Assembly: GCA_017536685.1 (NCBI GenBank) | Contig: JAFXGW010000011.1 | Location: 25,958-89,957 of the forward strand | Length of the DNA stretch: 64,000 nt | From: Clostridia bacterium | GTDB lineage: Bacteria; Bacillota; Clostridia; TANB77; CAG-508 | Reading direction: 5' to 3' | Part shown: piece after piece, positions 36,625-64,000 of the stretch | Numbering within the stretch: position 1 is the first letter of the stretch | Layout of the letters: every line of letters starts with the position of its first letter | Notes under the pieces: model-generated | What the model saw: the letters and a program-made list of their open reading frames with translations, nothing else | What the model was told of the DNA's origin: nothing | Databases searched by the model: none | Position numbers and translations under genes: made by a program

Positions 36625-37518
36625 TTATTTTAATATCCTTTGCATATTTCCATATATTAAATTTATCCAAGTAGTAGATGACGGACAAAATTTTGTTTTT
36701 ACTCCAGAAAGTGTTGGTCCATAATAAAATCTGCCACCTTCAGTTAAATAATTGTTATGCAAAGCTTCTGCTGCTTTTCTCAATCCCTCTTCAACTGAAG
36801 AAAATCTTATTAATCCACCATTTGTCATTAAACTTATATAATTATGAGTTCTTCTATGATTTTCTGCGATATGCCAACCAGATTCTCCAGCAATTAAACC
36901 ACAAAAGAAAATTTCATTTATTTGATACTCTTTGCAAATATCAAATATCAGCCCCGCATTTTCTTCAAAGAATCCTGCTTTATCTTCTTCTACTCCAGAA
37001 ATCAATGTTATAAAATCATTTCTAGATAAGCCAGTTGTTATAGTTAAGTCCATATCTTTTGAAATCGTAACTTCTTCAATAGAAATTGTTTCTGGTTCTT
37101 CTGGAACAACATCTTCTTCAATCGAATTTTCAATTGCTTCAAAATTTATACTTCCAATAGTTCCATATAAAATATTTGGTTCTGATGTTAATTTTTCTTT
37201 TGTGTCATCATCTATTTTTTCTATACTTTCTGCTTCTTCATCAACAACATTATTTGATTCTTCATTTTTTATTTCTGAAGTTCTTTTTTCTTCTGAAGTC
37301 GTTCCTCTTGAACTTATTTCCGGTTTTATTGTTTTTTTGACTTGCACATTTGCAGAATTTACTTCATGATAGTTTGTATTACTTACTAATTCTTTATTCT
37401 TTTGTAAATTACTTTTTATTGTATTTGCTAAACCTATAATTACAATAATTGATATAAATATTAACAAAAGTGTTGATACCTTTACTGATATTAATACTTT
37501 TCTATTTTCTCTTTCCAT
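36625..37518 (-). CDS. membrane-anchored N-acetylglucosaminidase (FlgJ/Glucosaminidase-domain) cell-wall hydrolase
   Basis: 297 aa. N-terminal TM. Acidic linker. C-terminal FCGLIAGESGWHIAENHRRTHNYISL, matching the ESGWG glucosaminidase signature. Confidence 0.55.
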   Translation of the reverse strand: MERENRKVLISVKVSTLLLIFISIIVIIGLANTIKSNLQKNKELVSNTNYHEVNSANVQVKKTIKPEISSRGTTSEEKRTSEIKNEESNNVVDEEAESIEKIDDDTKEKLTSEPNILYGTIGSINFEAIENSIEEDVVPEEPETISIEEVTISKDMDLTITTGLSRNDFITLISGVEEDKAGFFEENAGLIFDICKEYQINEIFFCGLIAGESGWHIAENHRRTHNYISLMTNGGLIRFSSVEEGLRKAAEALHNNYLTEGGRFYYGPTLSGVKTKFCPSSTTWINLIYGNMQRILK

Positions 37519-37730: not shown

Positions 37731-37813
37731 TGGTGCCCGAGGCGGGACTCGAACCCGCATGGTTTCCCGCACGATTTTGAGTCGTGTGCGTCTGCCAATT
37801 CCGCCACTTGGGC
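37731..37813 (-). tRNA. tRNA-Leu (anticodon CAA), type II with long variable arm, CCA encoded
   Basis: The minus strand reads gcccaagtggcggaattggcagacgcacacgaCTCAAAAtcgtgcgggaaaccatgcgggttcgagtcccgcctcgggcacca. Anticodon loop CU-CAA-AA. T-loop GGTTCGAGTCC. Confidence 0.85.
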
Positions 37814-37979: not shown

Positions 37980-39155
37980 TTACATTATTTCATTTTTGAA
38001 ACTTGTTCCGTTTTCTAATTTTTCCATTTCAAATATATCTAATATTGTTGCTGATATATCTGCATAAGTTTTTCTTATTCCTAAGTCTACATTTTGCTTT
38101 AGATTTTTTCCATAAACTAATATTGGAATATATTCTCTTGAGTGATCTGTACTTGGTGTGCTTGGATCATTTCCATGGTCCGCAGTCAAAATTAACATAT
38201 CATCTTCTTTTAAGCTATCCATTATTTCTGGTAATTTACTATCAAAATATTCTAAAGCTTTAGCATATCCTTCTATATTATTTCTATGTCCATATAACAT
38301 ATCAAAATCTACTAAGTTCGTAAAAATTAAATCTTCATTACTATTTTTTATAGCCTCAAGAGTTTTTTCTATTCCGTCTTCATTGCCACTTGTATGAATT
38401 GATCTATTTATTCCTCTTCCAGTAAACAAATCTTCAATTTTTCCTATTGCTAAAACTTTTTTATTATTATCTTGGAATACATCTAACATTGTTCTTCCAA
38501 AATCTTCTGCTTCATAATCTTTTCTATTATAGGTTCTTTTAAAATCTTCTGCACAAGTTCCTATAAAAGGTCTAGCTATTACTGTACCAATTCCGTATCC
38601 AAGTTCATCTATCGTATTTCTAGCAATTTGACATAATTCGTGTAATTTTTCTGCCGGCATAATATCTTCATGCATAGCAATTTGAAGTACACTATCAGCT
38701 GAAGTATATACAATAGGCATATTTTTTTCTAATGATTCCTCTCCATATTGTTTTAAGAAATCAGTTCCAGATCCTTTTTTATTACATATAAAACCTGGTA
38801 TTTTTCCTCTTTTTGCAATTTCATCAAGTAATTCTTGTGGAAACCCTTCATAGTATGTTTTAAATGGCTCTTCTTTTATAAATCCAGCAATTTCCCAATG
38901 ACCAACAGGGCTATTTTTCCCTTTAGTTTTTTCAGCTGCTTTTCCAAAAATTCCTATTGGACTCTCTTCTTTTTCTGGAATACTAAGACCTTGAATATTA
39001 TACAAACCTAGTTTCTTCATATTAGGAAGATTTATTTTTGTGTTATTATATATTCCTTCTAATGTATTGCTTCCAACATCTCCATAATCAATAGCATCTG
39101 GAGTTTCACCAACTCCAAAACTATCTAAAACTATAATAACAACTCTATTTATCAT
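37980..39155 (-). CDS. deoB: phosphopentomutase
   Basis: Start set at MINRVVIIVLDSFGVGE after GAGGAGGAAGAGG. Characteristic LDSFG.G N-terminus and GNEDG / DHGNDP metal-site motifs. The start overlaps the upstream gene's stop by ~11 nt. Confidence 0.9.
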   Translation of the reverse strand: MINRVVIIVLDSFGVGETPDAIDYGDVGSNTLEGIYNNTKINLPNMKKLGLYNIQGLSIPEKEESPIGIFGKAAEKTKGKNSPVGHWEIAGFIKEEPFKTYYEGFPQELLDEIAKRGKIPGFICNKKGSGTDFLKQYGEESLEKNMPIVYTSADSVLQIAMHEDIMPAEKLHELCQIARNTIDELGYGIGTVIARPFIGTCAEDFKRTYNRKDYEAEDFGRTMLDVFQDNNKKVLAIGKIEDLFTGRGINRSIHTSGNEDGIEKTLEAIKNSNEDLIFTNLVDFDMLYGHRNNIEGYAKALEYFDSKLPEIMDSLKEDDMLILTADHGNDPSTPSTDHSREYIPILVYGKNLKQNVDLGIRKTYADISATILDIFEMEKLENGTSFKNEIM

Positions 39156-49150: not shown

Positions 49151-50644
49151 TTATTTATCTAATAATTTATTGTTTGACTTGATTCCCCCAATAATTTGTC
49201 CAGTTATAGCATCTACATAAATATCTATATAATTTATTTTTTCATCTTCAGTTCTATAATGTAACTTCCAACAAATTCTTTCTTCTCCCGATATTGGTGT
49301 TTTTATATAATCCATTTCAGCAAATTCTTCCTTTGTTAATAAATCTAATCGATCATCTTTATAACCAATGTAAGGTAGAAATTTAAAATTAAAATACTCT
49401 TCAAATTCTCCTCGAACTTCTTCTGCAATGCTTATTGCTTTTTCAGCATCAATTTTTAATTTTTTATCACTTTCTACAAACACAGTGCTGCTATTTCCAC
49501 TTTCTTTTGGAATAATGGCTAGTAACAAACTTTCTCTATTATTTTTTTCTCCATCTACTACAAAATTCCATCTCCAAGCTTCATTACTTGCATATTGTTG
49601 TAAATAATTAAGTTTTTCTCCTGTTTTATAAGCAATTACAACAAAATAAGATTCGAAATCTTTTTCTGTTAGTTCTCTTAATCCAGAATAATTTTCTCTA
49701 AATTTATTATAGGTGTCTAAATAATCTATTCCAAATTTTATTATTCCGCTTTCATTTGGTGTTAATTTCAAAAAGTTTAACTCTTCTCCTTGAGCAATTT
49801 CAACATTTTCAATCAGCTGTTCTCCTGGTTTTAAATCAGTTCCTGTTATCGGATTTTCAGCAATTAACTTTCTATGATATATTTCACCAAAAGCCTCATC
49901 CGAAAAATTAACCACATCGAAATCTTCTGGATCTGGTTTTTCAAAAACTCCATCTGGTGCTTGTTTTAAATACTCATACTCAATAATACTTGCAATTTTT
50001 TTATCCTTATCTTTATATTGTGCAGCTACAGTTAGCAAACTTTCTTTATCTACATATATTTTTTTATAGCCACTACCAAATGGATCAATTGCATAACACT
50101 TTTTTCCGTTATATTCTTCTGTTACAACAATTGGATAAAAAAATCTATATTTTATTTCATTTTTTAATTTTGTAAAAATATTATCTGTCTCAAATTCAAT
50201 TTTTCCTAAAGTATATAAATCATAAATGATACCTTTTGTATTATTGAACTCTTCTTCCATCAATCTTTCTTTATTTCTAGTTATACAAGTTAGTTCTTTT
50301 AATCCATTTTCATTTTCGTAATTTGCAATATAAGAATTGCAAAATTCTTCATTTAGAAACTCCCACGAAGTAATTTCTAAAATATTATTTTCTCCATCAC
50401 TTGTACTACATTTGTGCACTGAGGCATTATTATTTCTATAATATTCATCAATTATTATTTGTCCATCACCTATAAATACATCGTTTCTTGTAATTTTTAT
50501 AAAGTAAGGTTCTGATGAAGAAACAAAATCCATTGTAGTTTTTGAAATTTTTGATAAAATTGAATAGTGATAAATTCTTGTTGCTACTATTAAAATAATT
50601 ATTGCCACAAGACATAATATAAGTATCTTCTTAATCTTTTTCAT
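49151..50644 (-). CDS. membrane-anchored secreted protein with C-terminal PepSY-like segment (tandem paralogue B)
   Basis: 497 aa. Same conserved blocks as 47637..49085. Confidence 0.4.
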   Translation of the reverse strand: MKKIKKILILCLVAIIILIVATRIYHYSILSKISKTTMDFVSSSEPYFIKITRNDVFIGDGQIIIDEYYRNNNASVHKCSTSDGENNILEITSWEFLNEEFCNSYIANYENENGLKELTCITRNKERLMEEEFNNTKGIIYDLYTLGKIEFETDNIFTKLKNEIKYRFFYPIVVTEEYNGKKCYAIDPFGSGYKKIYVDKESLLTVAAQYKDKDKKIASIIEYEYLKQAPDGVFEKPDPEDFDVVNFSDEAFGEIYHRKLIAENPITGTDLKPGEQLIENVEIAQGEELNFLKLTPNESGIIKFGIDYLDTYNKFRENYSGLRELTEKDFESYFVVIAYKTGEKLNYLQQYASNEAWRWNFVVDGEKNNRESLLLAIIPKESGNSSTVFVESDKKLKIDAEKAISIAEEVRGEFEEYFNFKFLPYIGYKDDRLDLLTKEEFAEMDYIKTPISGEERICWKLHYRTEDEKINYIDIYVDAITGQIIGGIKSNNKLLDK

Positions 50645-50757: not shown

Positions 50758-51387
50758 TTATTTTATTTTTTTATCTTTTTCGCTTTTTGTAAATAAATTT
50801 TTTATTTTTTCTTTTATGTTTACTGGATTTAAAGCATTTAACAATATAATAGCAGCAATAGATAATCCAAAAGCTCTAATAATTTCTACTACAAATTCTT
50901 TTTTATTATTGAAAACATCTATAAAAGTAGGAATTCTCCAAATTGGCATTAGCATAAATATTATAAAAAATATTAATTCTAAAACTTCACCAATTTTAAT
51001 ATTAGCTTTTCTTGTACTTTCTCTTTCACCTTGTTCTAAATCTTTCAAACTTCTTTTTATATAAAAAATATAATTTATAATCGTTATTGCTATAATCGAT
51101 ATTCCTATAAATACACCTACAATAACATCAGTTCTACTATCTTTAAATGAATTGGCTTTTAATATACAAGCAATTCCTATAGCAATTGTTAAAGTAGAAA
51201 ACAATGTTAAAGTATAAAATTTAGTAACTAACGAAATTAATTCATCAAGTTCAATCTTATTTTTCTTATGATGCTTATGAAATATAAAATAATACGCAAT
51301 ACCAATCGCAATCATATATATTCCAAAAAGAATTGTTATAAGGTTAAAATCTATTTTTTGAAATTCAAATGGTATATTAAAATTCAT
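50758..51387 (-). CDS. polytopic membrane protein, unknown function
   Basis: 209 aa. Four or five TM helices. Confidence 0.35.
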   Translation of the reverse strand: MNFNIPFEFQKIDFNLITILFGIYMIAIGIAYYFIFHKHHKKNKIELDELISLVTKFYTLTLFSTLTIAIGIACILKANSFKDSRTDVIVGVFIGISIIAITIINYIFYIKRSLKDLEQGERESTRKANIKIGEVLELIFFIIFMLMPIWRIPTFIDVFNNKKEFVVEIIRAFGLSIAAIILLNALNPVNIKEKIKNLFTKSEKDKKIK

Positions 51388-52221: not shown

Positions 52222-52297
52222 GCTTATATAGCTCAGTTGGTAGAGCAACAGATTCGTAACCTGTAGGTCGGCGGTTCGATTCCGCCTATAAGCTCCA
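52222..52297 (+). tRNA. tRNA-Thr (anticodon CGT), CCA encoded
   Basis: gcttatatagctcagttggtagagcaacagaTTCGTAAcctgtaggtcggcggttcgattccgcctataagctcca. Perfect 7-bp acceptor. GGTTCGATTCC T-loop. Anticodon loop UU-CGU-AA. Confidence 0.8.
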
Positions 52298-52370: not shown

Positions 52371-53135
52371 TTATTGTCTTTCACTGTCATTCTTATTATC
52401 TTCTATAAGACCAACATTTCTAATTTCTTCTGTTTTTCCTGTAATATAATCTTGGCTTAATCTATATACTTGTATTCCATAATGCTCCCCACCTGATTCT
52501 GCAACAAAAACAACTTTACCATAGTCCAATATATCAACTTCAGTCATATAATCTATTGCTGCTGCCATTTCAAATTCGTTTGTAATAGTTTCATTATTTC
52601 TGTTCGCAGTTATAACAACTGTTATTTCATCTTTAATATTAGCTGTATAAGATGCTTCATTTACCATATCTGCACCACAATCTATGCTTCCTAATAATTT
52701 AATTTCATTGTTTATTAATTGATAAACATTAACCACACAAGCTTCTCCTCCAGAATATGATACTAGCGCAACTTTTCCAATATTTTTTATATCCATCGTT
52801 CCAGTCTTATCAATCATGGCTCCCAATTCAAATTCCTTTGAGATTTCATTTCCATCTTGTATAGCTTTTATCGTAGCATACATTTCATCTCTAATAGTAA
52901 TTGTATATTCAATATCATCAGTATCTAAATTACCATTTTTTTCATAATAAGTTGTTACATTTTGGTCTTTTTCTTCTAAATATGTATATTCCATTTTCAT
53001 TTCATAAATAATGCAAGCCATTATACAAATAATTATAATCATTCCTACCATTATTAATGATGACAAAGTAATTTTACATTTATTATTTTTTTCCATTATA
53101 TTTATTCCTTTCTTACAAATAATTATATAGCACAA
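52371..53135 (-). CDS. membrane-anchored protein with two internal ~70-aa repeats
   Basis: 254 aa; the true start is probably MEKNNK, 13 codons in. TM anchor. Repeats ITxNxxxIxNEFEx(G/A)AxID..(T/E)xDIxxxGKVxxVxxSGGE. Confidence 0.4.
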   Translation of the reverse strand: MCYIIICKKGINIMEKNNKCKITLSSLIMVGMIIIICIMACIIYEMKMEYTYLEEKDQNVTTYYEKNGNLDTDDIEYTITIRDEMYATIKAIQDGNEISKEFELGAMIDKTGTMDIKNIGKVALVSYSGGEACVVNVYQLINNEIKLLGSIDCGADMVNEASYTANIKDEITVVITANRNNETITNEFEMAAAIDYMTEVDILDYGKVVFVAESGGEHYGIQVYRLSQDYITGKTEEIRNVGLIEDNKNDSERQ

Positions 53136-53177
53136 AAGAAGAAATTTTCACATACAATTTCTTCTTTTGTGCATTTA

Positions 53178-56100
53178 TTAATCTTCTGCAACTATAAAAT
53201 TATATGGTATTGTTAATAGTTCGCCTTCACTATTTTTTACTCTAAATAGTAATCTATAAGTTGAATTTGCTGTTGTTGAAGATAACCTCATTGTTACTTT
53301 ATTAGTTCCCTCTATTGCATTAACATCGAATACTCCTATATTGTGATTTGTTGTATTATTAACTTGATTTAATCTGTCTGTTACCTTTTGATATGCTGTT
53401 CCTACTTTTTGTTGAAGCTCGACTGTTACAGCACAATCAGCGGCTGATAAATATTCAAATGTGGTTTCTAAATTTTCACTCAAATCATTTTTATGCAATA
53501 CTCTTTTATTCATATTAGTTATTTTTAATGCAGGATTTACTCTTCCTTCTGATTTTATTGTTATTTTTCCGCTTCCAACTAATTCTCCTGCCATTGGTAA
53601 ATTTGCATTTGCTGTTGCTGATACCCAAAGTTCCACTTCAAATACATATGGTGTTTCTGCATTTGGTAGCATTCCTGAATTCATTTGTATTGTAATTGTA
53701 TCTGTTAAATTTGATATATCATTTAAAGGAATTATAAATTGTTTATTTGCATTTAAATAATAACTTTCATTTTCTATAATCAAATTTGTATCTGAGGCAA
53801 TATTATCTGGCACTTTTATTATTAATGAAAGTTTTCTTCCATCATATTTTGATTCTGCTCCTTCTGTATCTTGCATAGAATATGATATTTCAAAGTTTTC
53901 TCCAAAATTAGCATTTGCTGGAACAGTCAATTCAAATGTCCTTTTACCTTTTGTTGTAAAAGTCAATTCTTTTGAATTAAAATTATCTACCGAATCATTA
54001 CTACTTTCCAAAATCATTTTTACAGTATAAGTTCCTATATTCATATAGCCTGATGAACATTTTGAAAAATCCACAATTACTAAGAATTTTTGTTCTATTG
54101 TATCTGCTCCAGTTAACAATGCATAATCTTTTGTTTGCAATGTTCCCATTGCTGTAAAATTTTGAAGATCAATATTTGAAATTGCACTATTTACTTCATA
54201 ATACCAATAATTTGGATTTTGAAAATCTGTTAATTCTGCCAAAATAATATTTGTTCCCACAGGCAAACTATTAGAAAAACTTATGCATTGTCCATCATAC
54301 AAGTCTGGTATATAACTTAAAACAAATTGTGTTGTAAAGGCTGAGTCTTGACTTATTGATACTTCTTCTGTTATCTCATCAAACATTACAAATCTTTTCC
54401 CTGATGCAATTGATGATTTTGGATCTGTTGCTTGTTTAATTTCTCTATTTATATTAATTTTTTGTTTAATTGTAACTCCATTATCGCTTGTTAAAGTTAC
54501 TATAATATAACGAATTTGTGAGTTATCACTAAGCTGATTTGCATTATATATTTTAAATGTAAACTCTGGCGCTGAATTTTCTAATAAAGTTCCAACTTCT
54601 ATTGGCATTGTTTGACTACTGCTTAATATATCTTTTTCTAAGCTCCCCATGTTTGCCGTTATTGCAAATGTTTTATTTGCATCTGTTCCTGGCATATCAA
54701 CATTTGCTTCTATATATTGTTTTGTTTGTAATGTTGCATTATAAAGTTCAACACCTGTTATTGAAAACGTATGTGCATTTTTAAATTGAGGGAATACAGT
54801 TTCTTCAACTGTAACAGTATTTACATTTCCATCTATCTTTGGCTGCATATCTGGTGCTGCTGTTAATGTAATCTCATCTAGCTCCATAGAATATTTCAAA
54901 TCAACAGTTACTAATGATGTCGAAAAGTTTCCCGCAGTTTCTCTATCATTGTTTATATGTTTATAATAACCTCCAGAATGCCAAACATTTATGGCTCCAG
55001 CTTCAACACCATAATCCTCTCCACTATATTGCATTTTAATAGATATTCTTGATCTATCACCATTTTCAATTCTTTCCTTATTTAAAGTAATTTTTATTAA
55101 AGTTACTTTTTCCCATAATAAGTTTTCGTTTGTTTCAATTTCTTCAGCAGTATACCAGTTTTCAAGTTCTTTTGCTTCTACATAACTTACACCTTCTGCA
55201 AAAGAATATTGTATACTTAGAAAATCATCACCAGTTTTAGTAGTTTTTTCTATCATCTCAAAATCAAAGAATTTTGTCGAATCTCCCGATATTAAGAAAT
55301 TATCTACTGTAGAAGTCTTTTTAGGTATTGGTATATAGTATTCAAACCCTTCTGCGTTTCCACCACTAAAACATCCTATATCTATATTATAATTTACAAT
55401 ATCTGTTTCTGCTAACAAGGATTGCTCTGTTCCTTCTTCTGTTATAGAACCTTGCCTATCTACAGATATACTATTGGTTATATCTAAAGTTGCTGTTTCA
55501 GCTACTATTTGACAACTTGCTGTATTGTTTGATCTTACGCAAGCAATATTATCTGTTGTTGAACCATTTTCATTTAAATCATATATATCTGTTTTTTTAG
55601 ACCAGCTATAAGTTCCTGAACCAGCATTAGTTTGCTTGTACCCAGCTGTAACTAATATATCTTTAGCAAATAAAGTTGAACTATCTATAGTATATGCAGT
55701 ATCTAATTGCATATTAAATTTTACATAGCTACCTGTTGAAAGCACCGCTAAACTTTCTGTAGCATATCCTACACATATATCCGATGGTAATTTTATTATC
55801 CATAATATAGTACCATTCCCTAAATCTCTGGTAGATACTTGAAAGCCAGTAATAGATACTCCTTTAGAAGTAGAAAAAGCTATTGATTGTTCATTTATAG
55901 ATACATCTTTTGGTAAAATTGCACCTAAAGTCATTCCTTTTATCCACGTACAGTTTCCATAAGGATATTTTACTGCTTCTATTCGTCCTGAAAGTTCAAC
56001 ACTTTCGCCAGCTTCTATTGTTGATTTACTCATTGCTACATTTTCTAACATATATGTAGGATTACTTGACGTTTGTAAAGGAGTTTTTGCAGTTCCATTA

Positions 56101-58238
56101 AGTGTAGCTATATCTGGATTAGAAGATACAACTTTAATTGTACTTGATGGGGATTGACCACTTTGTGCATTTTCATTTATATATCCAAAATAGTTTCCTG
56201 GACCTGTATGCTCATTATTTGATTGATAAGCATATAATTTATGTCCCGCTTTAATTGTATTTAAAGTATATTCTATTGTTTTAAAATAATAATTTCTTTG
56301 TGATTCTGGTAATAGCCCTCTTCTAATGGTATTACGTAATCCTGCAGTAGAAGTTTTATTGTAATAACTATTTTTAATAGAATATTCCCATTCTCCAATA
56401 GCACCTTCTAAAGTTTCTTCTACTCTTTCTCCAGCATCATTTAAAAATACTCTAATTCCATCTTCGTCTACTAAAGTATATTTTATATTTATATATTCTT
56501 GAACAGTATCAGCATGAGTATTTACAGTTGTAACTTTAATTAAATTTGTATTTTCAGTATCAAAAGTCCAATAAAAAGTTTTTTCACAGCTATCTCCTGT
56601 TCCTTTATTCTCTAGCCAAAATCCACCAAGCTCAGAAATTGCTCCAGTAGGTCTTTCTGTAATTGTTGCCGACTTTGAGCCCGCCGATAACGTTACCTTT
56701 TCTAAGTTTTCTTTTTGATATGTAATTTGATACATAGTTTGTGAAAACAACGATATATTTTCTGTTCCATTTTTACTATCTACTGTTGCTGTGACTTTTC
56801 CATTATAAAAAGCAAAAGAGTTTGCATCTAAAGCTAGTAATTCTTCACTTAAAGGTCCAAGATTAAATTTTATTACTGTTCCAGTAGAACTATAATAATT
56901 ATCAAAAGTTATTGTAAAAATACCATTTGATTCTAATTGACTCGACTCTATTTGATAAGATGGATTACTTATATTCGGAAATGTTATTTCATCTACATTT
57001 GGTAATAAGAAATGTTTATTACTGTCAGCATCTGTATAATATGGACATTGTACTTTCATTATTACTTTATTAAAAAATAATTTTATTCCACTCTCTGAAG
57101 ACGGTGAATATGTTATTGTTGCTGTAACTGTCTTGTCCTTTAAAACTGTTACTGCTGATACATTATTGTTTCCATCTATTGCCAAATAATTAGCTGAACT
57201 AAAAGAAATTTTAGTTCCTGCTGTCGCTTTTCCAATTAATAATTTCTGTAATTGTGTAATATTTTCTTCTGTATCTTTTTTCGAAAGACTTACAGTTATA
57301 GGTGCAACTCCATCTGGAGTTAAATTCGAGTTTGCCCTTTTGTCCCATAAATTAGTATCATATCTAATTTCAAGCTGAATAGTTCCACTTATTCCCATTC
57401 TATTCATAACAAATTTTGCAGTACCACTATAAGTATTTACTTGATAAGTTCCTCCATTATTCACTGCTAATGGTTCGTTTTGAGTAAATTCTACTGCTTG
57501 ATATCCACTTGGTGCAATTAATTCTGTAGCAACAATATAAAATTCTTCTGGTAATTCAACTGTAACTATATATGTATTCCCATCTGCTGGAACATTTGGA
57601 TCTATTTGTAAATATTTACTGGTATCATATTTCCAGCCATCTACTTGTGCACCTTCTTCTGTAAGTACTGTTCCAGTTCCTTCACTATATTGATTTGTAT
57701 CATATAAAACTGCTTGTAATGAATAACTTGTTGTATCATTACTAACCACTGTTTCCCCTTGAGTTGTGTTGCTTGAAGTTGCATCTTCTGATAATAAATT
57801 TGTAGTACCACTACTAAATGTAGCAAATTTTAGTGCTTCGTCTTTTGTTACATTATTTGAAATGTTGTTTTCTATTGTTGTATTTTCTGACACAGAATTT
57901 GATATCGTATTTTCTGTTATCTTATTTTCTAACGTATTTGAAACTATATTTTCTTTTATTTGATTTTGTAATTCATTGTTTGAATTTGTATCGTTATTAA
58001 TTTCATTTTCTATTGAATTAGTAAAATTATTTGAAATAGAATTGTTATCTATTATGTTTTGGGATAAATTATTTTGAACTATATCTTCTGTTCTTAGTGA
58101 AGCATCTAATGCGTTTTCTTCTGCTGATGTCACAATTTCATCAGCTTTAGAAAATAGCATTTTACCAGGTAAAAATGCTATTATTAAAATTATTAACATT
58201 AACAAATATTTCCATACACTCTTTCGTTTATGGCGCAT
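53178..58238 (-). CDS. giant secreted surface protein (1686 aa) with N-terminal signal, Asn/Ser-rich low-complexity region and long beta-rich body
   Basis: Signal MRHKRKSVWKYLLMLIILIIAFLPGKMLFSKADE, possibly of SipW-cognate type. Residues ~55-135 are N/S/I/E-rich octad-like repeats. No LPXTG or C-terminal anchor. Its C-terminal ~400 aa are paralogous to 62676..63890. Confidence 0.6.
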   Translation of the reverse strand: MRHKRKSVWKYLLMLIILIIAFLPGKMLFSKADEIVTSAEENALDASLRTEDIVQNNLSQNIIDNNSISNNFTNSIENEINNDTNSNNELQNQIKENIVSNTLENKITENTISNSVSENTTIENNISNNVTKDEALKFATFSSGTTNLLSEDATSSNTTQGETVVSNDTTSYSLQAVLYDTNQYSEGTGTVLTEEGAQVDGWKYDTSKYLQIDPNVPADGNTYIVTVELPEEFYIVATELIAPSGYQAVEFTQNEPLAVNNGGTYQVNTYSGTAKFVMNRMGISGTIQLEIRYDTNLWDKRANSNLTPDGVAPITVSLSKKDTEENITQLQKLLIGKATAGTKISFSSANYLAIDGNNNVSAVTVLKDKTVTATITYSPSSESGIKLFFNKVIMKVQCPYYTDADSNKHFLLPNVDEITFPNISNPSYQIESSQLESNGIFTITFDNYYSSTGTVIKFNLGPLSEELLALDANSFAFYNGKVTATVDSKNGTENISLFSQTMYQITYQKENLEKVTLSAGSKSATITERPTGAISELGGFWLENKGTGDSCEKTFYWTFDTENTNLIKVTTVNTHADTVQEYINIKYTLVDEDGIRVFLNDAGERVEETLEGAIGEWEYSIKNSYYNKTSTAGLRNTIRRGLLPESQRNYYFKTIEYTLNTIKAGHKLYAYQSNNEHTGPGNYFGYINENAQSGQSPSSTIKVVSSNPDIATLNGTAKTPLQTSSNPTYMLENVAMSKSTIEAGESVELSGRIEAVKYPYGNCTWIKGMTLGAILPKDVSINEQSIAFSTSKGVSITGFQVSTRDLGNGTILWIIKLPSDICVGYATESLAVLSTGSYVKFNMQLDTAYTIDSSTLFAKDILVTAGYKQTNAGSGTYSWSKKTDIYDLNENGSTTDNIACVRSNNTASCQIVAETATLDITNSISVDRQGSITEEGTEQSLLAETDIVNYNIDIGCFSGGNAEGFEYYIPIPKKTSTVDNFLISGDSTKFFDFEMIEKTTKTGDDFLSIQYSFAEGVSYVEAKELENWYTAEEIETNENLLWEKVTLIKITLNKERIENGDRSRISIKMQYSGEDYGVEAGAINVWHSGGYYKHINNDRETAGNFSTSLVTVDLKYSMELDEITLTAAPDMQPKIDGNVNTVTVEETVFPQFKNAHTFSITGVELYNATLQTKQYIEANVDMPGTDANKTFAITANMGSLEKDILSSSQTMPIEVGTLLENSAPEFTFKIYNANQLSDNSQIRYIIVTLTSDNGVTIKQKININREIKQATDPKSSIASGKRFVMFDEITEEVSISQDSAFTTQFVLSYIPDLYDGQCISFSNSLPVGTNIILAELTDFQNPNYWYYEVNSAISNIDLQNFTAMGTLQTKDYALLTGADTIEQKFLVIVDFSKCSSGYMNIGTYTVKMILESSNDSVDNFNSKELTFTTKGKRTFELTVPANANFGENFEISYSMQDTEGAESKYDGRKLSLIIKVPDNIASDTNLIIENESYYLNANKQFIIPLNDISNLTDTITIQMNSGMLPNAETPYVFEVELWVSATANANLPMAGELVGSGKITIKSEGRVNPALKITNMNKRVLHKNDLSENLETTFEYLSAADCAVTVELQQKVGTAYQKVTDRLNQVNNTTNHNIGVFDVNAIEGTNKVTMRLSSTTANSTYRLLFRVKNSEGELLTIPYNFIVAED

Positions 58239-58243
58239 ATATA

Positions 58244-59017
58244 TTAATTCCTTTCTACTGAAAAATCATCTTTGCTATAACTTGAACTTGGTTGCTTTTT
58301 AAAAAACGGAAGCGTATATTCTGAATTAGCTTCAAATGTTATCGTTGCACTTCCTTGTAAATACCCAGTATTCACCCCTGAAAACTTCTCATTAGTACTA
58401 TCAGGTGCTACTCCTGCTGGCCAGCTAATATTTATATCTCCAGAATAATCTTCCGTTTGTATTGTTAGTTGTAATATCGGACTATTAGCCGAATCATGTA
58501 TTTCATATATAATATCTTCTTCTTTTTCTGTCAAAACAAAAGATGCTCTAAGAGTTCTTTCATATGGTTTTATCGCTTTTGCAGTTATTAAATATGTTCC
58601 TGTTGGTAAATTAGTAAATTCTATTGTTTTCTCTTCTACATTTTTGTTAGAAAGCTTTCCTGTCTTTTCTTTAATAATATTACCTTCCTTATCTTGAACC
58701 GTATTTCCATGTATATCAGTTATATTTACAACATATTGTGTTTCTACATCAGAATATCTTAATTCATCAATATTATTACTTAAAGAAAAAGAAATTGAAT
58801 CTTTTCCTTTTTCATAAGTATAAGCTTTAGGATTTGTGTTATCTGAAAGTAAATCACTTTCAAAATAGAAACTTTTCGCTTCATATACAATATCTTTATT
58901 TTTTTCAAATACATACTTTGCTAAAGACCCACCAATTAACATAATTGGTATTAATACTAAAAATATTTTATTAAAATTTAATTGTCTTTTTGTATTATAT
59001 CTTCTTTTCTTAGACAT
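58244..59017 (-). CDS. secreted protein with SipW-cognate (TasA/camelysin-type) signal peptide
   Basis: 257 aa. Basic N-terminus + hydrophobic core, then IGGSLAKYVFE, resembling the GGTxAYFSD SipW-cognate consensus. Confidence 0.4.
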   Translation of the reverse strand: MSKKRRYNTKRQLNFNKIFLVLIPIMLIGGSLAKYVFEKNKDIVYEAKSFYFESDLLSDNTNPKAYTYEKGKDSISFSLSNNIDELRYSDVETQYVVNITDIHGNTVQDKEGNIIKEKTGKLSNKNVEEKTIEFTNLPTGTYLITAKAIKPYERTLRASFVLTEKEEDIIYEIHDSANSPILQLTIQTEDYSGDINISWPAGVAPDSTNEKFSGVNTGYLQGSATITFEANSEYTLPFFKKQPSSSYSKDDFSVERN

Positions 59018-59029
59018 TTTATATCCTTT

Positions 59030-59551
59030 CTAATCAGTTTGAGTAGCTAGCACTTTTATAGCAAAATGTTCAATCTCTAAAGCATAGGCTTCATCATTTT
59101 TATCTTCTGGCCAATTTATTTTCAAATAAAGAGTCATTTCTTGTTCTCTATCTGCAGTAAATTTAAAATCATCTTCACTATAAATTCCATTTTCATCTGG
59201 CTCTAATATTTCTGTACAATATTCATCCTTATACAAACCATATGTTAATGGTAAATTTTCTATAGCACTTCTTTTTATTTCTAATGAAAAACTTTGCCCA
59301 ACTTCGCACACTCTGTCACCATCTTTATTAGTAATGACAATTGGGCAAACAACTGGGTCACTTCCAGGATATGCTTCAATTGGAATTTGGGCATCTACTA
59401 AGACATCTGTAGCCATAATTGCAACTCTTGTTGTACTGTCTCTTGCTACAGTCGATTCATATCTTGAAAATGATATAGACAATATAATTATTGTTGTTAT
59501 AAAACATAAGAATATTAAATTATGAGATTTTATCTTATTCTCATTTCTCAT
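59030..59551 (-). CDS. small secreted protein, possible SipW substrate
   Basis: 173 aa. N-terminal hydrophobic core followed by SFSRYEST. The start overlaps the end of sipW by 11 nt. Confidence 0.35.
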   Translation of the reverse strand: MRNENKIKSHNLIFLCFITTIIILSISFSRYESTVARDSTTRVAIMATDVLVDAQIPIEAYPGSDPVVCPIVITNKDGDRVCEVGQSFSLEIKRSAIENLPLTYGLYKDEYCTEILEPDENGIYSEDDFKFTADREQEMTLYLKINWPEDKNDEAYALEIEHFAIKVLATQTD

Positions 59552-60158
59552 TCGTTTTCTCCTTATTTTTTTGTTTTTCGTATCTCATTCGTTTTTTTTC
59601 TCTTGCTAGTTTCTTTTCATCTGTAGATTGGCAATATAATAAATATAAATAATAAATTACTAATACCAAAATTATTGTAGTGGATTTCTTTAAAAATAGT
59701 AAGATATTTCCTAAATTTGATATTGTATTTACAACTTTTCCTTCTATTTGTTCATCTTTAACAATTTCTATATCTTCTACATTGTTAAAATCACCTTTAG
59801 TTTTATATTGCTTGCTACCATCAGACAAAAACATTATTTCAGTAATTCTATGCGTTATAATTAAGTTATCTCTTCTAAATGATATAATGTCTCCCTCTTT
59901 TAATTGTTCTAAGCTATCTTTTACAATTACTATATCTCCAATTTCTAATTCAGGTTGCATACTTCCTGAAATTATTACATAACTTTTTATCCCAAAAAAG
60001 CTCGGAGTTTTATCTGGTTTTATTATTGCTTGTATAATTAGTGATGTATTATATATTAGGAGAGGAATTAAGATTATATAAGCTATTGTACTTATTATTT
60101 TCTTAATTTTTAATTCTTTATTTTTTCTCCTTTTTATCTCATCATTTGTATATAGCAT
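59541..60158 (-). CDS. sipW: signal peptidase I, SipW (archaeal/ER) type
   Basis: 205 aa. ISGSMQPE catalytic Ser box. THRI and KTKGDFNNVED boxes matching B. subtilis SipW (LSGSMEPE...THRII...KTKGDNN). C-terminal basic/coiled extension. Confidence 0.85.
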   Translation of the reverse strand: MLYTNDEIKRRKNKELKIKKIISTIAYIILIPLLIYNTSLIIQAIIKPDKTPSFFGIKSYVIISGSMQPELEIGDIVIVKDSLEQLKEGDIISFRRDNLIITHRITEIMFLSDGSKQYKTKGDFNNVEDIEIVKDEQIEGKVVNTISNLGNILLFLKKSTTIILVLVIYYLYLLYCQSTDEKKLAREKKRMRYEKQKNKEKTNEK

Positions 60159-60779
60159 CTAGTCTTCTCCTACTTTAACGTATTCTTCAGCTTCAATTTG
60201 TAAATTCAATTTATAATATTCATCATCCTCTTGACTTCCTACTAAAGTATCATTTAGATTATCATCTACCCAATACCAATCTAATGTAAATATATTGTTT
60301 GAATCTTGTATTGCAACTATTTTTTCAACATTCAAATCTTCTATTCCTACATATTCGTTTTCATTTCCTCTTACATAAACATTATTTAATTTTAATCTAT
60401 ATTTCACATTTATAGGGAACTTCATTTCATCTAAAAATTTTATATCATATGTAATATCTTTGCGAGTTACATTTTCTACACAAAATTTATATGAACCTTT
60501 TGATTTTGGTGCAATTTTCTTTTGCCCAGAAAATAAAGTATTATTAAATATATTTAGTTCTGTTTCTTCAGCTATTAGTCCGTCATTATCCTTAACTTTT
60601 ATTAGTTTTACATTATCACTTGGTAATAATCCTATTTTCCCAACTCTATATCCTAACAATATTAGCATTATTATTAATATAACAATAACAACTATCAATA
60701 GTATTTTATCATTCTTATCTTTTTTTTGTCTTTTTACATAGTCATCTATAGTATAGGGTATGTTTTCTTCTTTTTTCAT
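60159..60779 (-). CDS. membrane-anchored beta-rich protein in TapA-like position (immediately upstream of sipW)
   Basis: 206 aa. One N-terminal TM (ILLIVVIVILIIMLILL). Stop abuts the sipW start (60158/60159). Confidence 0.35.
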   Translation of the reverse strand: MKKEENIPYTIDDYVKRQKKDKNDKILLIVVIVILIIMLILLGYRVGKIGLLPSDNVKLIKVKDNDGLIAEETELNIFNNTLFSGQKKIAPKSKGSYKFCVENVTRKDITYDIKFLDEMKFPINVKYRLKLNNVYVRGNENEYVGIEDLNVEKIVAIQDSNNIFTLDWYWVDDNLNDTLVGSQEDDEYYKLNLQIEAEEYVKVGED

Positions 60780-60971
60780 ATTTACTCCTTCTTACAAATT
60801 ATGAAATATACTCACAAAACACACTAATTTTTTAGTAATTTTTGTCAATATATTTTTATCAAAGCTCTATCTCTATTTCAAAATAGAGCTTTTGATTGTA
60901 GTAATTATAATTGTTTATATAAAGTTTTAGCTCTTTAAAACAATTTAATTATATGTAAGATTCCAATTAGT

Positions 60972-61595
60972 TTATTGATCTACTTGTTGTACATCAATTG
61001 TAGCTTTAACTGTAACTGTTGGAAGTGTAGTATTTACTGCTAACGCTGTATCTGATGAATCTCTATTAGCATCTGTATCATCTGTAAATGCCCATCTCCA
61101 ATAGATTGTTTTTGTATTTGCTGTAGCTCCAATTCCAATTTCTGTAAAATCAGAATCACAAATATCAGCTATACTAGAACTCCAACTTTGTTTGTCTAAT
61201 GAATATTCTAATGGAACATTTGAAGCATTTGTTACTTCATATTTGGTTTTAAATTCAGCTTTTACTTCTGAAGCATTTTCCAATGCAACAGTAAAGCTTC
61301 CTGTTGTTCCAGGTGCTATTAAAGACCCGTCCACTTTTTTTATTGAATCTGATGTATCTCCTGATAATGTACTGAAGATATCAAATTCAAGTTCTTTTGC
61401 TGTTGTTCCAGCAACATTTACTTTGTTACCATTTTTATCAGTAACATTGAATACCCATTTTGCAACTGTAGCTGTATCTGAGCCATATGAGGTAGATACA
61501 TATCTTGCATATGTTCCTGATACTAATATTAATGCTACCATTGTGAAAAATAAAATAAATATAGCAAATTTTACTATTGTATTTTCACTTTTCAT
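60972..61595 (-). CDS. TasA/camelysin-like secreted protein with SipW-cognate signal peptide
   Basis: 207 aa. Signal ...LILVSGTYARYVSTSYG (compare GGTFAYFSD). Mature part beta-rich and T/S/A-rich, like TasA. Confidence 0.5.
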   Translation of the reverse strand: MKSENTIVKFAIFILFFTMVALILVSGTYARYVSTSYGSDTATVAKWVFNVTDKNGNKVNVAGTTAKELEFDIFSTLSGDTSDSIKKVDGSLIAPGTTGSFTVALENASEVKAEFKTKYEVTNASNVPLEYSLDKQSWSSSIADICDSDFTEIGIGATANTKTIYWRWAFTDDTDANRDSSDTALAVNTTLPTVTVKATIDVQQVDQ

Positions 61596-61686
61596 TAGTG
61601 TATTCCTCCTTTCTGTTGTAATTTTTTCAATAATATTCTAGAATATTACTTTTTATAATAAAAGCAAAATGCTTATTATAAACAAT

Positions 61687-62298
61687 TTAAGAATTATTTT
61701 TCTTTAGTTCTTCATTTTGTTGTTTTAATCTTTCAATTTCTTCCTCTAACGCTTTTTCTTTTTGTAATTTTTCTTCTTCATATTTTTTATTTCTTTTTGT
61801 TTCAATTGATTGTAGTATAATAAGTAAACCTATAGGTACGGATAAACATGATACAATTCCTATAGGAGTTTGTATAAATAATGCAACATTACCTAGTCTT
61901 GATATTTTAAATTGATATAAACCTTCTATTTGTTCCGGTAATACAAATCCTCTGTCTTCTATATTATTGTTATCACCTTTTGTTTTATATTTTGTTTCAC
62001 CGTTTTCTTCTACCACTTCAACAATTCTGTGAGTTACTACAACATCTCCATCTTTAAATGCTATAACGTCATCTTTTTTTATTTCACTTGCTGGTACTTC
62101 TCTTACAACTGCAATATCTCCAGAATAAATTTCAGTTTCCATTGATCCAGACAATACTATAAACGGTTTCCATCCAAAAAACGATGGGACTTCATCTGGT
62201 TTTACAAAAGAATCTAGTATAATTATTCCATTTACCACTAAAATTGGAAGTAATATTATTAATAATATTATGCTAACTATTTTTTTTATTTTTTTCAC
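61687..62298 (-). CDS. sipW: signal peptidase I, SipW type (second copy) with C-terminal coiled-coil tail
   Basis: 203 aa. LSGSMETE, VTHRIVEV, KTKGDNNNIED. Terminal EEEKLQKEKALEEEIERLKQQNEELKK. Confidence 0.85.
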   Translation of the reverse strand: MKKIKKIVSIILLIILLPILVVNGIIILDSFVKPDEVPSFFGWKPFIVLSGSMETEIYSGDIAVVREVPASEIKKDDVIAFKDGDVVVTHRIVEVVEENGETKYKTKGDNNNIEDRGFVLPEQIEGLYQFKISRLGNVALFIQTPIGIVSCLSVPIGLLIILQSIETKRNKKYEEEKLQKEKALEEEIERLKQQNEELKKNNS

Positions 62299-62675
62299 TG
62301 ATTTCTACCTCTTCCTTCCTATATGCAAAGATTATATATACTTTTTATATTAAACGCTTTTGCTCATAATCTCTTTTCTTTACTTAAATTTAATTTTTTA
62401 GTTTTATATTCGAAATTTTTAATAAGTTTCTCAACACTTTTCATTAAATTTCTCCCAACATAATTCTTATTCGAATCATAACATATTTCTACCTTTTTGT
62501 ATATATCTTTACATTCTGTTACAAAAATTTAACCTTTTTTTAATTTTTATGTAATATTTTGTTTTTTCAATTAAATAATTTTAGCATTTTCAATTTCGTG
62601 TCAATAATTATAATTATTGACATAAAAAATAGAAGATAAGTGGTTTTACTTATCTTCTATTTTTTATAATTTATG

Positions 62676-63890
62676 CTATTTATCATTTGCCACAATAAAA
62701 TTATATGGTATTGTCAGTAATTCTTCTCCTTGACTATTTTTAACCTTAAATAATAATCTATAAGTTGAGCTTGTTATCGCAGAAGAGAGTCTCATTGTTA
62801 CTTTATTTATTCCTTCTGTTGAGCTTACATTAAATACTCCAAATGTGTGATTTGTAGTATTGTTAACTTGATTTAATCTATCTGTTACTTTTTGATATGC
62901 TGTACCAACTTTTTGTTGTAATTCAACTGTTACTGAGCAATTAGTTGCTGTTACATATTCAAATGTTGTTTCTAAATTTTCACCTAAATCTTTTTTATGT
63001 AACACTCTTTTGTTCATATTTGTTACTTTTAAAGCTGGATTAACTTTTCCTTCTGTAACAATTGTTATTTCTCCGTTTCCAACTTTTTCGCCAAGCATCG
63101 GTAAATTAGCATTAGAAGTTGCTGATACCCAAAGCTCCACTTCAAACACATATTGTGTTTCTGTATCTGGTAGCATTTCTGAATTCATTTGTATTGTAAG
63201 ACTATCTGTTAAATTGGATATCTCATTTAAAGGAATTATAAATTGTTTATTTGCATTTAAATAATATTTTTCATTTTCTATGCTTAAGTTTATATCTGGT
63301 GAAATATTATCTGGTGCATTCATTATTAATGAAAGTTTTCTTCCATCATATTTTGATTCCGCTCCTTCTGTATCTTGCATAACATATGATATTTCAAATT
63401 TTTTTCCGAAATTAGCATTTTGTGGAACTGTAAGTTCAAATCTTCTCTTACCTTTTGTTATAAAAGTTAATTCTTTTGAATTAAAGTCCTCTACTGAATC
63501 ATTGCTACTTTCCAAAATCATTTTTATAGTATAATTTCCAGTGTCAATATATCCTGATGAACATCCCGAAAAATCAACAATAACTAAGAATTTTTCTTCA
63601 ATTGTATCTGCACCAGTAGATAAAGTATAATTTTTAGTTTGAGTTGTTCCCATTGCAATAAAATCTTGAATATCAATTGTAGAAATTACACTTCCTACTT
63701 GATAATAATAGTACATTGGGTTATCGCTGTTAGTTAATTCTGCTAGAATAATTTTTGTACCTACTGGTAAATTATTTGAAAAACTTATACTTTGACCATT
63801 ATATAAGTCTGGTATATAGTTTAAAACAAATTGTGTTGTAAATGCTGAATCTTGACTTATTGTTACTTCTTCTGTAGTATCATCAAACAT
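62676..63890. repeat. about 1.2 kb dispersed repeat (paralogous 3' gene segments) matching 53178..54395
   Basis: Long stretches of near-identical nucleotides, for example gctgatacccaaag(t/c)tccacttcaaa(t/c)acatat and tgcatttaaataata(a/t)t. Confidence 0.6.
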
Positions 63891-64000
63891 TACAAATCTT
63901 TTTCCAACAGCAATTGCTGATTTAGGGTCTGTTGCTTGTTTAATTTCTCTGTTTATATTAATTCTTTGTTTAATAGTAACTCCATTATCGCTCGTTATAG
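62676..64000 (-). CDS. second giant surface protein, paralogue of 53178..58238 (N-terminal part lies beyond window end)
   Basis: The frame stays open through position 64000 upstream of the annotated Met. It reads ...ITSDNGVTIKQRININREIKQATDPKSAIAVGKRFVMFDDTTEE, colinear with the 1686-aa protein. The last ~400 aa are ~75-80% identical to it. Confidence 0.6.
   Translation of the reverse strand, partial: ITSDNGVTIKQRININREIKQATDPKSAIAVGKRFVMFDDTTEEVTISQDSAFTTQFVLNYIPDLYNGQSISFSNNLPVGTKIILAELTNSDNPMYYYYQVGSVISTIDIQDFIAMGTTQTKNYTLSTGADTIEEKFLVIVDFSGCSSGYIDTGNYTIKMILESSNDSVEDFNSKELTFITKGKRRFELTVPQNANFGKKFEISYVMQDTEGAESKYDGRKLSLIMNAPDNISPDINLSIENEKYYLNANKQFIIPLNEISNLTDSLTIQMNSEMLPDTETQYVFEVELWVSATSNANLPMLGEKVGNGEITIVTEGKVNPALKVTNMNKRVLHKKDLGENLETTFEYVTATNCSVTVELQQKVGTAYQKVTDRLNQVNNTTNHTFGVFNVSSTEGINKVTMRLSSAITSSTYRLLFKVKNSQGEELLTIPYNFIVANDK

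Follow-up and report, generated by a model that had tools for sequence, protein, structure and literature searches.

What does a bacterium build with an operon that encodes two SipW-type signal peptidases, several small exported proteins and a giant surface protein, and in which no structural protein is annotated? The question is posed by a locus at one end of a 64,000-nucleotide stretch of DNA from a Clostridia bacterium (assembly GCA_017536685.1, contig JAFXGW010000011.1, positions 25,958 to 89,957; the whole stretch is called the window below). Its genes encode, in order of transcription, SipW_A, p207, p206, SipW_B, p173, p257 and giant1; a second giant gene, giant2, precedes them and runs off the window. 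The initial annotation saw here duplicated tapA-sipW-tasA modules flanked by two giant paralogues and proposed a heteropolymeric TasA-type fibre. The open reading frames (ORFs) it quoted are all present on the minus strand, and the N-termini it gave for the 257-, 207- and 173-amino-acid (aa) proteins are correct. A fibre is still the best reading of the locus, although the fold match to TasA is weak and no TasA hidden Markov model (HMM) matched. We see roughly an even chance that the operon encodes a divergent, unannotated version of a TasA/BsaA-type surface structure, a fibre or adhesin that depends on SipW, is anchored in the membrane and carries a giant adhesin; that the subunits would polymerise is argued by analogy.

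Two peptidases and their substrates in a conserved gene order

Both peptidases exceed the cut-off (51.85 bits) of TIGR02228, the endoplasmic reticulum (ER)/archaeal-type signal peptidase I family, SipW_A at 94.7 and SipW_B at 95.6 bits, which bears out the proposal that both enzymes are SipW-type. They are 42% identical to each other and 35% (SipW_A) and 32% (SipW_B) identical to SipW of Bacillus subtilis. The 190-bit cut-off of the Bacillus SipW equivalog model NF046067 is not reached (113.8 and 95.1 bits), and from their sequences the two enzymes are judged to be SipW-like rather than SipW orthologues. Genuine B. subtilis SipW and TapA sequences for comparison were recovered from locus L090; a metagenome scan with TasA yielded near-identical B. 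subtilis loci only, which were used for these sequences. The boxes SGSM(E/Q), THRI and KTKGDxNNxED, from which the assignment had been made, occur in both peptidases, although SipW_A carries SGSMETE and not the SGSMEPE that had been given. The catalytic Ser (in SGSM), His (in THRI; there is no Lys) and Asp (in GDxNNxxD) are present in both and are kept in 64-65 of the 67 positional orthologues of class A and in 55-57 of the 57 of class B. SipW_A has two transmembrane segments and a 40-aa charged tail.

Relatives of p207 are encoded in 193 stretches of the species-representative genome set, and 80 of these loci were analysed. Searches with the window proteins by tblastn and phmmer recovered a recurrent order: SipW_A, p207 (one to five copies), a p206-like protein (200-1360 aa), SipW_B, a p173-like protein, a p257-like protein and a very large protein (600-2800 aa). 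A SipW-type peptidase lies directly upstream of the p207 homologue in 73 of the 80 loci, a second SipW is found in 59 of the 69 loci that have at least 4 kb of downstream sequence, and a protein of at least 500 aa follows the second SipW in 42 of 51. Adjacency by chance, a possibility raised earlier, does not fit these counts. The best cross-locus match of an upstream peptidase is another upstream peptidase in all 67 cases and that of a downstream peptidase a downstream one in 56 of 57, while peptidases of the same related locus share a median of only 36% identity. The pair is therefore not a recent duplication. SipW_A and SipW_B form separate, ancient orthologous groups, and the gene order, conserved across dozens of gut Firmicutes species, is that of one ancient operon in place of the local tapA-sipW-tasA duplication first suggested.

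The protein family at the centre of this operon is large and unnamed. A word-indexed search with p207 returned 302 homologues, all unnamed and none with Pfam domains; a p207 profile run against 1.84 billion representatives gave 7571 matches at E<=1e-3, of which 638 were at E<=1e-30. The family comprises about 7,500 clusters at 50% identity for which there is no Pfam or NCBIfam model, and Pfam and NCBIfam scans gave no above-cut-off family for any of the seven non-peptidase proteins of the locus. From gut and rumen, the carriers are for the most part uncultured: Clostridia, Lachnospiraceae, Erysipelotrichaceae, Bacilli and metagenome-assembled genomes (MAGs) labelled 'Tenericutes'. One cultured carrier, Ventrimonas faecis CLA-AP-H27 (L046), is among the analysed loci and is available for experiments. 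A minimal version, SipW - p207 - p206, occurs in L007, L012 and L016. Contigs binned under the names Bacteroidaceae, Muribaculaceae, Paludibacteraceae, Endomicrobium and Anaerolineaceae also carry related clusters (L036, L043, L044, L068, L071, L076, L084), reflecting either mis-binning or transfer outside the Firmicutes.

The distribution bears on a spore-associated role, in which the products would form part of a coat, an exosporium or an appendage. TasA was first found as the spore protein CotN (PDB entry 5OF1 bears the name 'Spore coat-associated protein N'), and sporulating Clostridia are numerous among the carriers. The three-gene version in L007-L009 sits among spo0A, spoIIID, sipL and yunB. 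The window locus, however, has housekeeping neighbours (threonyl-tRNA synthetase, a UvrD-type helicase and a CYTH protein), with no sporulation promoter or gene inside the cluster. The cluster is also present in MAGs that bear the labels Bacilli, Tenericutes, Mollicutes and Erysipelotrichaceae, groups whose members commonly form no spores. We regard a spore structure as improbable.

The peptidases appear to have substrates of their own. Predicted cleavage sites (marked by a slash) are VSGTYA/RYVS in p207, ISFS/RYES(T) in p173 and GGSLA/KYVF(E) in p257. All three fit the motif [ST][FYL][AS]/[KR][YF]x[ST], which lies directly C-terminal to the hydrophobic core and is kept within each family. Across the 80 related loci [GSTAV][FYWL][AS][KR][YF] after the hydrophobic region was found in 129 of 528 ORFs inside the clusters and in none of 582 outside; it is missing from all 54 members of the p206 family. 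Thus p207, p173 and p257 are predicted to be three substrates with a private, cluster-specific cleavage motif. This parallels the sites in the B. subtilis sequences of TasA (GTWA/AFND) and TapA (TSA/AFHD). TIGR04088, the SipW-cognate signal model, matched no window protein and gave weak matches in three of 43 p207 homologues (best E 0.022). The motif is analogous to the TIGR04088 class, yet distinct from it. The N-termini had been described as resembling the SipW-cognate TasA/camelysin class: the resemblance to the TasA/CalY pattern GT[WF]A/x[FY] holds, while the HMM searches lend no support to membership of TIGR04088 or PF12389.

The giants differ in this respect. The signal of giant1 ends FSKA/DE and that of giant2 FSKA/EE, with similar sites in L061, L010, L048 and L069. 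Without [KR][YF] at +1/+2, the giant1 signal is an ordinary A-x-A-like (small-x-small) site and not of the cognate type, to which its cleavage region had been thought weakly to belong.

A family of beta-sandwich subunits and a split giant

Alignments of each small family were built from the related loci and compared with hhalign after removal of the signal peptides. The p207 alignment matches that of p206 with a probability of 99.3% (E 6e-21) and that of p173 with 97.6% (E 4e-12, 133 columns), against 0.2-1.6% for reversed-sequence controls. p207, p206 and p173 are paralogous beta-sandwich proteins, and the first of these matches places p206 within the subunit family. p206 had been likened to TapA, whose position it occupies. 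There is no TIGR04087 match, and blastp against B. subtilis TapA (from L090) was empty; the protein belongs with p207, as a paralogue that lacks the cleavage motif. Its N-terminus consists of a long charged segment and one transmembrane segment, with R-V-G-K-I-G in place of the motif; [KR]xG[KR]IG is conserved among homologues, some of which have a 100-aa cytoplasmic N-domain. p206 thus looks like an uncleaved, signal-anchor-like type II membrane protein. TapA, by contrast, is cleaved and has a macroglobulin-like domain.

The family varies in number and size. Three to five p207 paralogues stand in tandem 5' of a p206-like gene at L078:140-4298, L029:7381-11827 and L011:4792-9647, suggesting diversification or variation of subunits. 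In L033, L055, L064, L072-L076, L080, L088 and L089, from a sub-lineage labelled Bacilli/'Tenericutes', the p206 position is filled by proteins of 820-1360 aa that retain the transmembrane segment and [KR]xG[KR]IG (e.g. ...SCTSKFLGKIG...). p207-like N-terminal domains fused to C-terminal extensions of 350-600 aa are encoded at L011:4792-6663, L017:2451-4415 and L029:7381-9309 and 10019-11827, and are found in proteins P0127, P0140, P0163 and P0178; these would be cargo-carrying subunits, in parallel with the fusions of p257 described next.

With its signal removed, the p257 family aligns to the N-terminal 250 aa of giants of 2685-2837 aa (hhalign 99.4%, E 7e-22, 204 columns). Because p257 and giant are fused in four species (L024, L038, L052, L063), where the fused giant begins with the cognate signal, p257 is a detached, separately encoded N-terminal module of the giant. 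The initial annotation had counted the 257-aa protein among the TasA-like subunits; it does carry the cognate signal, but no TasA-like domain was detected in it. An apparent match of p257 to p207/p173 vanished once the signal peptides were trimmed, and it was rejected as a paralogue of these proteins. The suggestion of a functional link between the giant and the small genes, on the other hand, is borne out by the conserved synteny and the fusions.

giant1 comprises a signal, a linker of ~130 aa rich in Asn, Ser, Thr and Glu, a variable all-beta body and a conserved C-terminal module of ~430 aa with three beta-sandwich domains. No Pfam or NCBIfam domain was found in it; full-length homologues occur in L061, L015, L021 and L046. 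The C-terminal module recurs in otherwise unrelated giants in 11 of the 80 species loci, all 11 of which have a separate p257. Protein searches with this module gave 5 and 12 homologues from 5.8 billion clusters, several carrying PF24547 (DUF7601), counts to be read with the under-sampling of this low-complexity, AT-rich-encoded family by the word-indexed search in mind. giant2, seen at its full 1680 aa at L001:3878-8920, has the same signal type and the same Asn/Ser-rich linker; its window fragment is 80% identical to giant1 residues 1249-1686. The two are 60% identical overall, ~80% over the last 450 residues and 37-53% over residues 300-900, a profile that would fit a conserved assembly part joined to a variable binding part. 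If the operon does build TasA-type fibres, the giants, because their bodies have diverged to this extent, would be testable candidates for host- or particle-binding adhesins.

With the fusions in hand a different kind of surface system can be weighed, one resembling sortase-dependent or type IV pili, or indeed no system but a chance neighbourhood of unrelated genes. A few homologues have weak, sub-threshold Pfam matches to Arch_flagellin and Pilin_N, and giant surface proteins are common beside many systems. None of the nine cluster proteins, however, contains LPXTG or matches a sortase family, and none matches a prepilin-peptidase family; the hydrophobic segment lies before the conserved motif and not, as in type IV pilins, after a G/F-type site. 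Chance adjacency is excluded by synteny and fusions. Given the specificity of the motif, the synteny, the absence of LPXTG and the p257-giant fusions, these explanations are effectively refuted, and we consider them highly improbable.

The case for a polymer draws on p207. Its first 17 predicted mature residues form the most conserved 17-residue window of the protein (3.0 bits against 2.1 for the rest, computed over 87 species-level sequences), as would be expected of a donor strand and not of a simple linker; in TasA and BsaA the donor segments fall at the equivalent residues, 28-38. In the AlphaFold2 model (43 sequences; pLDDT 84.7, pTM 0.70) a signal helix (residues 5-26) is followed by a coil (27-48) and then by a beta-sandwich. 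BsaA subunits are locked by an Asn-Glu-Lys isopeptide triad with N35 in the donor strand. Such a triad was considered for p207 and rejected: the N-terminal segment has no conserved Asn, and some members have Gln or Asp where NxSEV has its Glu.

Foldseek with the p207 model returned nothing at E<=1e-3. Its best matches are FimG, FimF, the PapG pilin domain and TasA (E 0.019, TMq 0.38); CsuA/B is a further donor-strand pilin among the matches, and the archaeal bundling pilin and the Sulfolobus thread appear lower. The weak matches also include beta-sandwiches that do not form filaments, namely MSP/PapD-like, macroglobulin and carbohydrate-binding module (CBM) domains. The modelled fold, a predicted beta-sandwich, therefore points toward the TasA type, but weakly.

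Several results weigh against a TasA-type fibre. PF12389 matched neither the window proteins (E up to 1) nor 43 p207 homologues (E up to 10), a p207 profile searched against PDB sequences missed TasA and gave only chance CD47 matches, and comparing the p207 alignment with the TasA sequence by hhalign yielded 0.3%; at the level of sequence no link between the locus proteins and TasA is apparent. No p207-like domain was seen in p257 (by hhalign, signal trimmed) or in the giant C-module, and the N-terminus of the giant is not conserved among orthologues. The reason for two peptidases is a conjecture, as is any division of labour between them, because both sets of substrates carry a nearly identical motif.

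These results could also be accommodated by a non-polymeric complex at the surface or in the medium, in which the peptidases mature dedicated exoproteins (small beta-sandwich proteins like lectins or CBMs, and a giant adhesin) that act as monomers or associate with the wall, with no donor-strand fibre. In its favour are the uniformly weak structural matches, many to non-filament sandwiches, and the lack of any TasA HMM match, and p207-like domains with 350-600-aa extensions resemble carrier modules. It would leave unexplained why the 17 N-terminal mature residues are the most conserved and yet unstructured in the monomer model. The tandem p207 arrays and the membrane-anchored paralogue without the motif fit a polymer with a base, and the best structural matches are enriched in subunits of donor-strand filaments. 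We judge this alternative unlikely, though it is to be taken seriously.

A proposed scheme for fibre assembly and its known counterparts

We propose the following scheme for a SipW-dependent fibre. Subunits would be exported by Sec and held at the membrane by their own signal peptides. SipW cleavage would release the conserved N-terminal segment of ~10-17 residues, and the freed segment would enter, as a donor strand, the sandwich of the next membrane-tethered subunit to give a shaft of p207. This strand-insertion step is drawn by analogy: it is proposed for BsaA (10.1101/2024.11.04.621531) and has been shown for TasA (PMC9674648; for TapA see PMC10151520). p173 would join the shaft to p257 and giant1, which would form the distal adhesive end, and the uncleavable paralogue p206 would take the last strand and hold the fibre to the membrane. 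The shaft subunit would be the substrate of SipW_A, and the tip module of p173 and p257 that of SipW_B; giant2, a paralogue expressed from a unit of its own, would be an alternative adhesin. The fuller claim is of a hitherto unrecognised fibre system, very widespread in gut Firmicutes, in which cleavage is the polymerisation step and is split between a shaft and a tip peptidase, p206 is anchor and terminator, and a split giant adhesin (p257 and a body of at least 1.7 kaa, i.e. thousand amino acids) sits at the tip. We advance it tentatively and hold it to be doubtful as a whole.

The tapA-sipW-tasA operon of B. subtilis (PDB 8AUR; PMC9674648, PMC10151520) would work alike, although no sequence homology to TasA or TapA was detected here. 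It has one peptidase where this locus has two. The clostridial operon adds a giant of 1.7 kaa and an adaptor module, and its hosts are anaerobic gut Clostridia and Bacilli. The sipW-bsaA-bsaB-bsaC operon of Clostridium perfringens (PMC7395162; 10.1101/2024.11.04.621531) is clostridial as well, and in it SipW is joined by two TasA-like paralogues and a larger accessory exoprotein. There, however, the SipW is single and BsaC is a vWA protein, not a beta-sandwich giant of 1.7 kaa. In the BsaA work, SipW cleavage is modelled to follow strand insertion into a membrane-tethered monomer (10.1101/2024.11.04.621531), and BsaA oligomers are described as membrane-associated without LPXTG (PMC7395162; 10.1101/2024.11.04.621531).

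The archaeal bundling pili AbpA/AbpB (PDB 7UEG; PMC9245690) and the Sulfolobus threads (7PNB) are archaeal, have no dedicated signal peptidase and show no detectable sequence relation; for TapA and AbpB a part as initiator or adhesin has been proposed (PMC9245690). Chaperone-usher pili (FimA/FimG/FimF/FimH, Pap, Csu) supply the best Foldseek matches of p207 (the FimG, FimF and PapG pilin domains) and share the logic of a shaft subunit and adaptors, with a large adhesin at the tip and a subunit that terminates or anchors the fibre. They are Gram-negative and need a periplasmic chaperone and an outer-membrane usher, neither of which is present here. The likeness is one of possible working and not of membership. 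If correct, the scheme would describe a functional chaperone- and usher-free analogue of these pili in monoderm bacteria.

The initial annotation did not recognise the architecture as described. No account of the dual-peptidase arrangement, the anchor paralogue, the p257-giant module or the size of the unannotated family was found in the searched literature. Operons with several BsaA/TasA-family paralogues and a signal peptidase are, however, already noted in the BsaA preprint, with heteropolymers suggested, and its survey of 2,172 proteins may include the p207 family (10.1101/2024.11.04.621531). Little is known of how the dominant gut Clostridia and Bacilli, most of them uncultured, adhere or form a matrix, and here a seven-gene cluster without any annotated structural protein recurs in at least 193 species-representative genomes. 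Were its products TasA-type fibres, the range of donor-strand matrix pili would reach far past Bacillus and C. perfringens, and the combination of two peptidases with an anchor paralogue and a giant protein at the tip would make a new architecture.

Layout, transcription and surroundings

Positions of the features are collected in Table 1. The window is ~26% guanine plus cytosine, with coding nearly all on the minus strand; L001, a 47-kb gut-metagenome scaffold, holds an exact copy of the region and reaches beyond the window end.

Table 1. Features of the locus and its borders, in window coordinates
Feature	Position	Strand	Basis or remark
giant2, C-terminal 441 codons	62676-64000	-	stop at 62676, start beyond window end
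Intrinsic-terminator-like hairpin	62622-62667	-	20-bp stem, 9 nt 3' of giant2 stop codon
Promoter-like site TTGACA-18-AATTAT	62575-62604	-	~270 nt 5' of sipW_A; consensus match only
SipW_A, ER/archaeal-type signal peptidase I, 203 aa	61687-62298	-	GTG start; TIGR02228
p207, candidate major fibre subunit, 207 aa	60972-61595	-	signal peptide, N-terminal extension, beta-sandwich
Structured intergenic RNA, 192 nt, between p207 and p206 genes	60780-60971	-	minimum free energy against shuffles
p206, candidate membrane anchor/terminator of fibre	60159-60779	-	p207 paralogue without cleavage motif
SipW_B, second ER-type signal peptidase I, 205 aa	59541-60158	-	TIGR02228
p173, candidate minor or adaptor subunit	59030-59551	-	p207 paralogue (hhalign)
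p257, secreted, separately encoded N-terminal module of giant	58244-59017	-	cognate signal, fusions elsewhere
giant1, candidate adhesin, 1686 aa	53178-58238	-	signal peptide, linker, body, C-terminal module
Single-transmembrane protein, 241 aa (from ATG)/254 aa	52371-53096/52371-53135	-	42 nt 3' of giant1; membership doubtful
tRNA gene	52222-52294	+	Rfam 70.5 bits; past last locus gene, opposite strand, marks 3' boundary
tRNA gene	37734-37813	-	Rfam 53.7 bits

A single minus-strand operon spans 62298 down to 53178. In it the gene of SipW_B abuts the p206 gene and overlaps the p173 gene by 11 nt, and 5 nt separate p257 from giant1. giant2 is a separate upstream transcription unit, since the terminator with its 20-bp stem and the promoter-like site follow it. 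The view of giant2 as a flank of the modules thus stands as regards its being a paralogue of giant1, but not as regards the operon, from which the terminator sets it apart. Between the promoter-like site and the sipW_A start lies a leader of ~270 nt (62299-62575, minus strand), in which an Rfam search for a riboswitch (e.g. for cyclic di-GMP) found no match. The spacer between the p207 and p206 genes folds into three hairpins with a minimum free energy of -48.4 kcal/mol, against -26.2 for shuffled sequences (z -6.2), and matches no Rfam family. This RNA may be a processing, stabilising or attenuating element that sets an excess of p207 over the products of the later genes.

The single-transmembrane protein 3' of giant1, called as 241 aa on L001, has an internal duplication of ~90 aa; it matches no family and has no homologue among the 80 related loci. 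A plasmid origin or annotated plasmid homologues were sought for the locus, and none was found. Further along the window, two paralogous signal-anchored proteins of 482 and 497 aa (47637-49085 and 49151-50644, minus strand), 35-42% identical, have no Pfam match, and the same is true of nearby ORFs at 50758-51387, 44118-45215, 39145-41508 and 36625-37518. Beyond the window, 5' of giant2, L001:538-3707 encodes a secreted protein of 586 aa with a weak dockerin match and a 458-aa protein with an LRP1-like beta-propeller.

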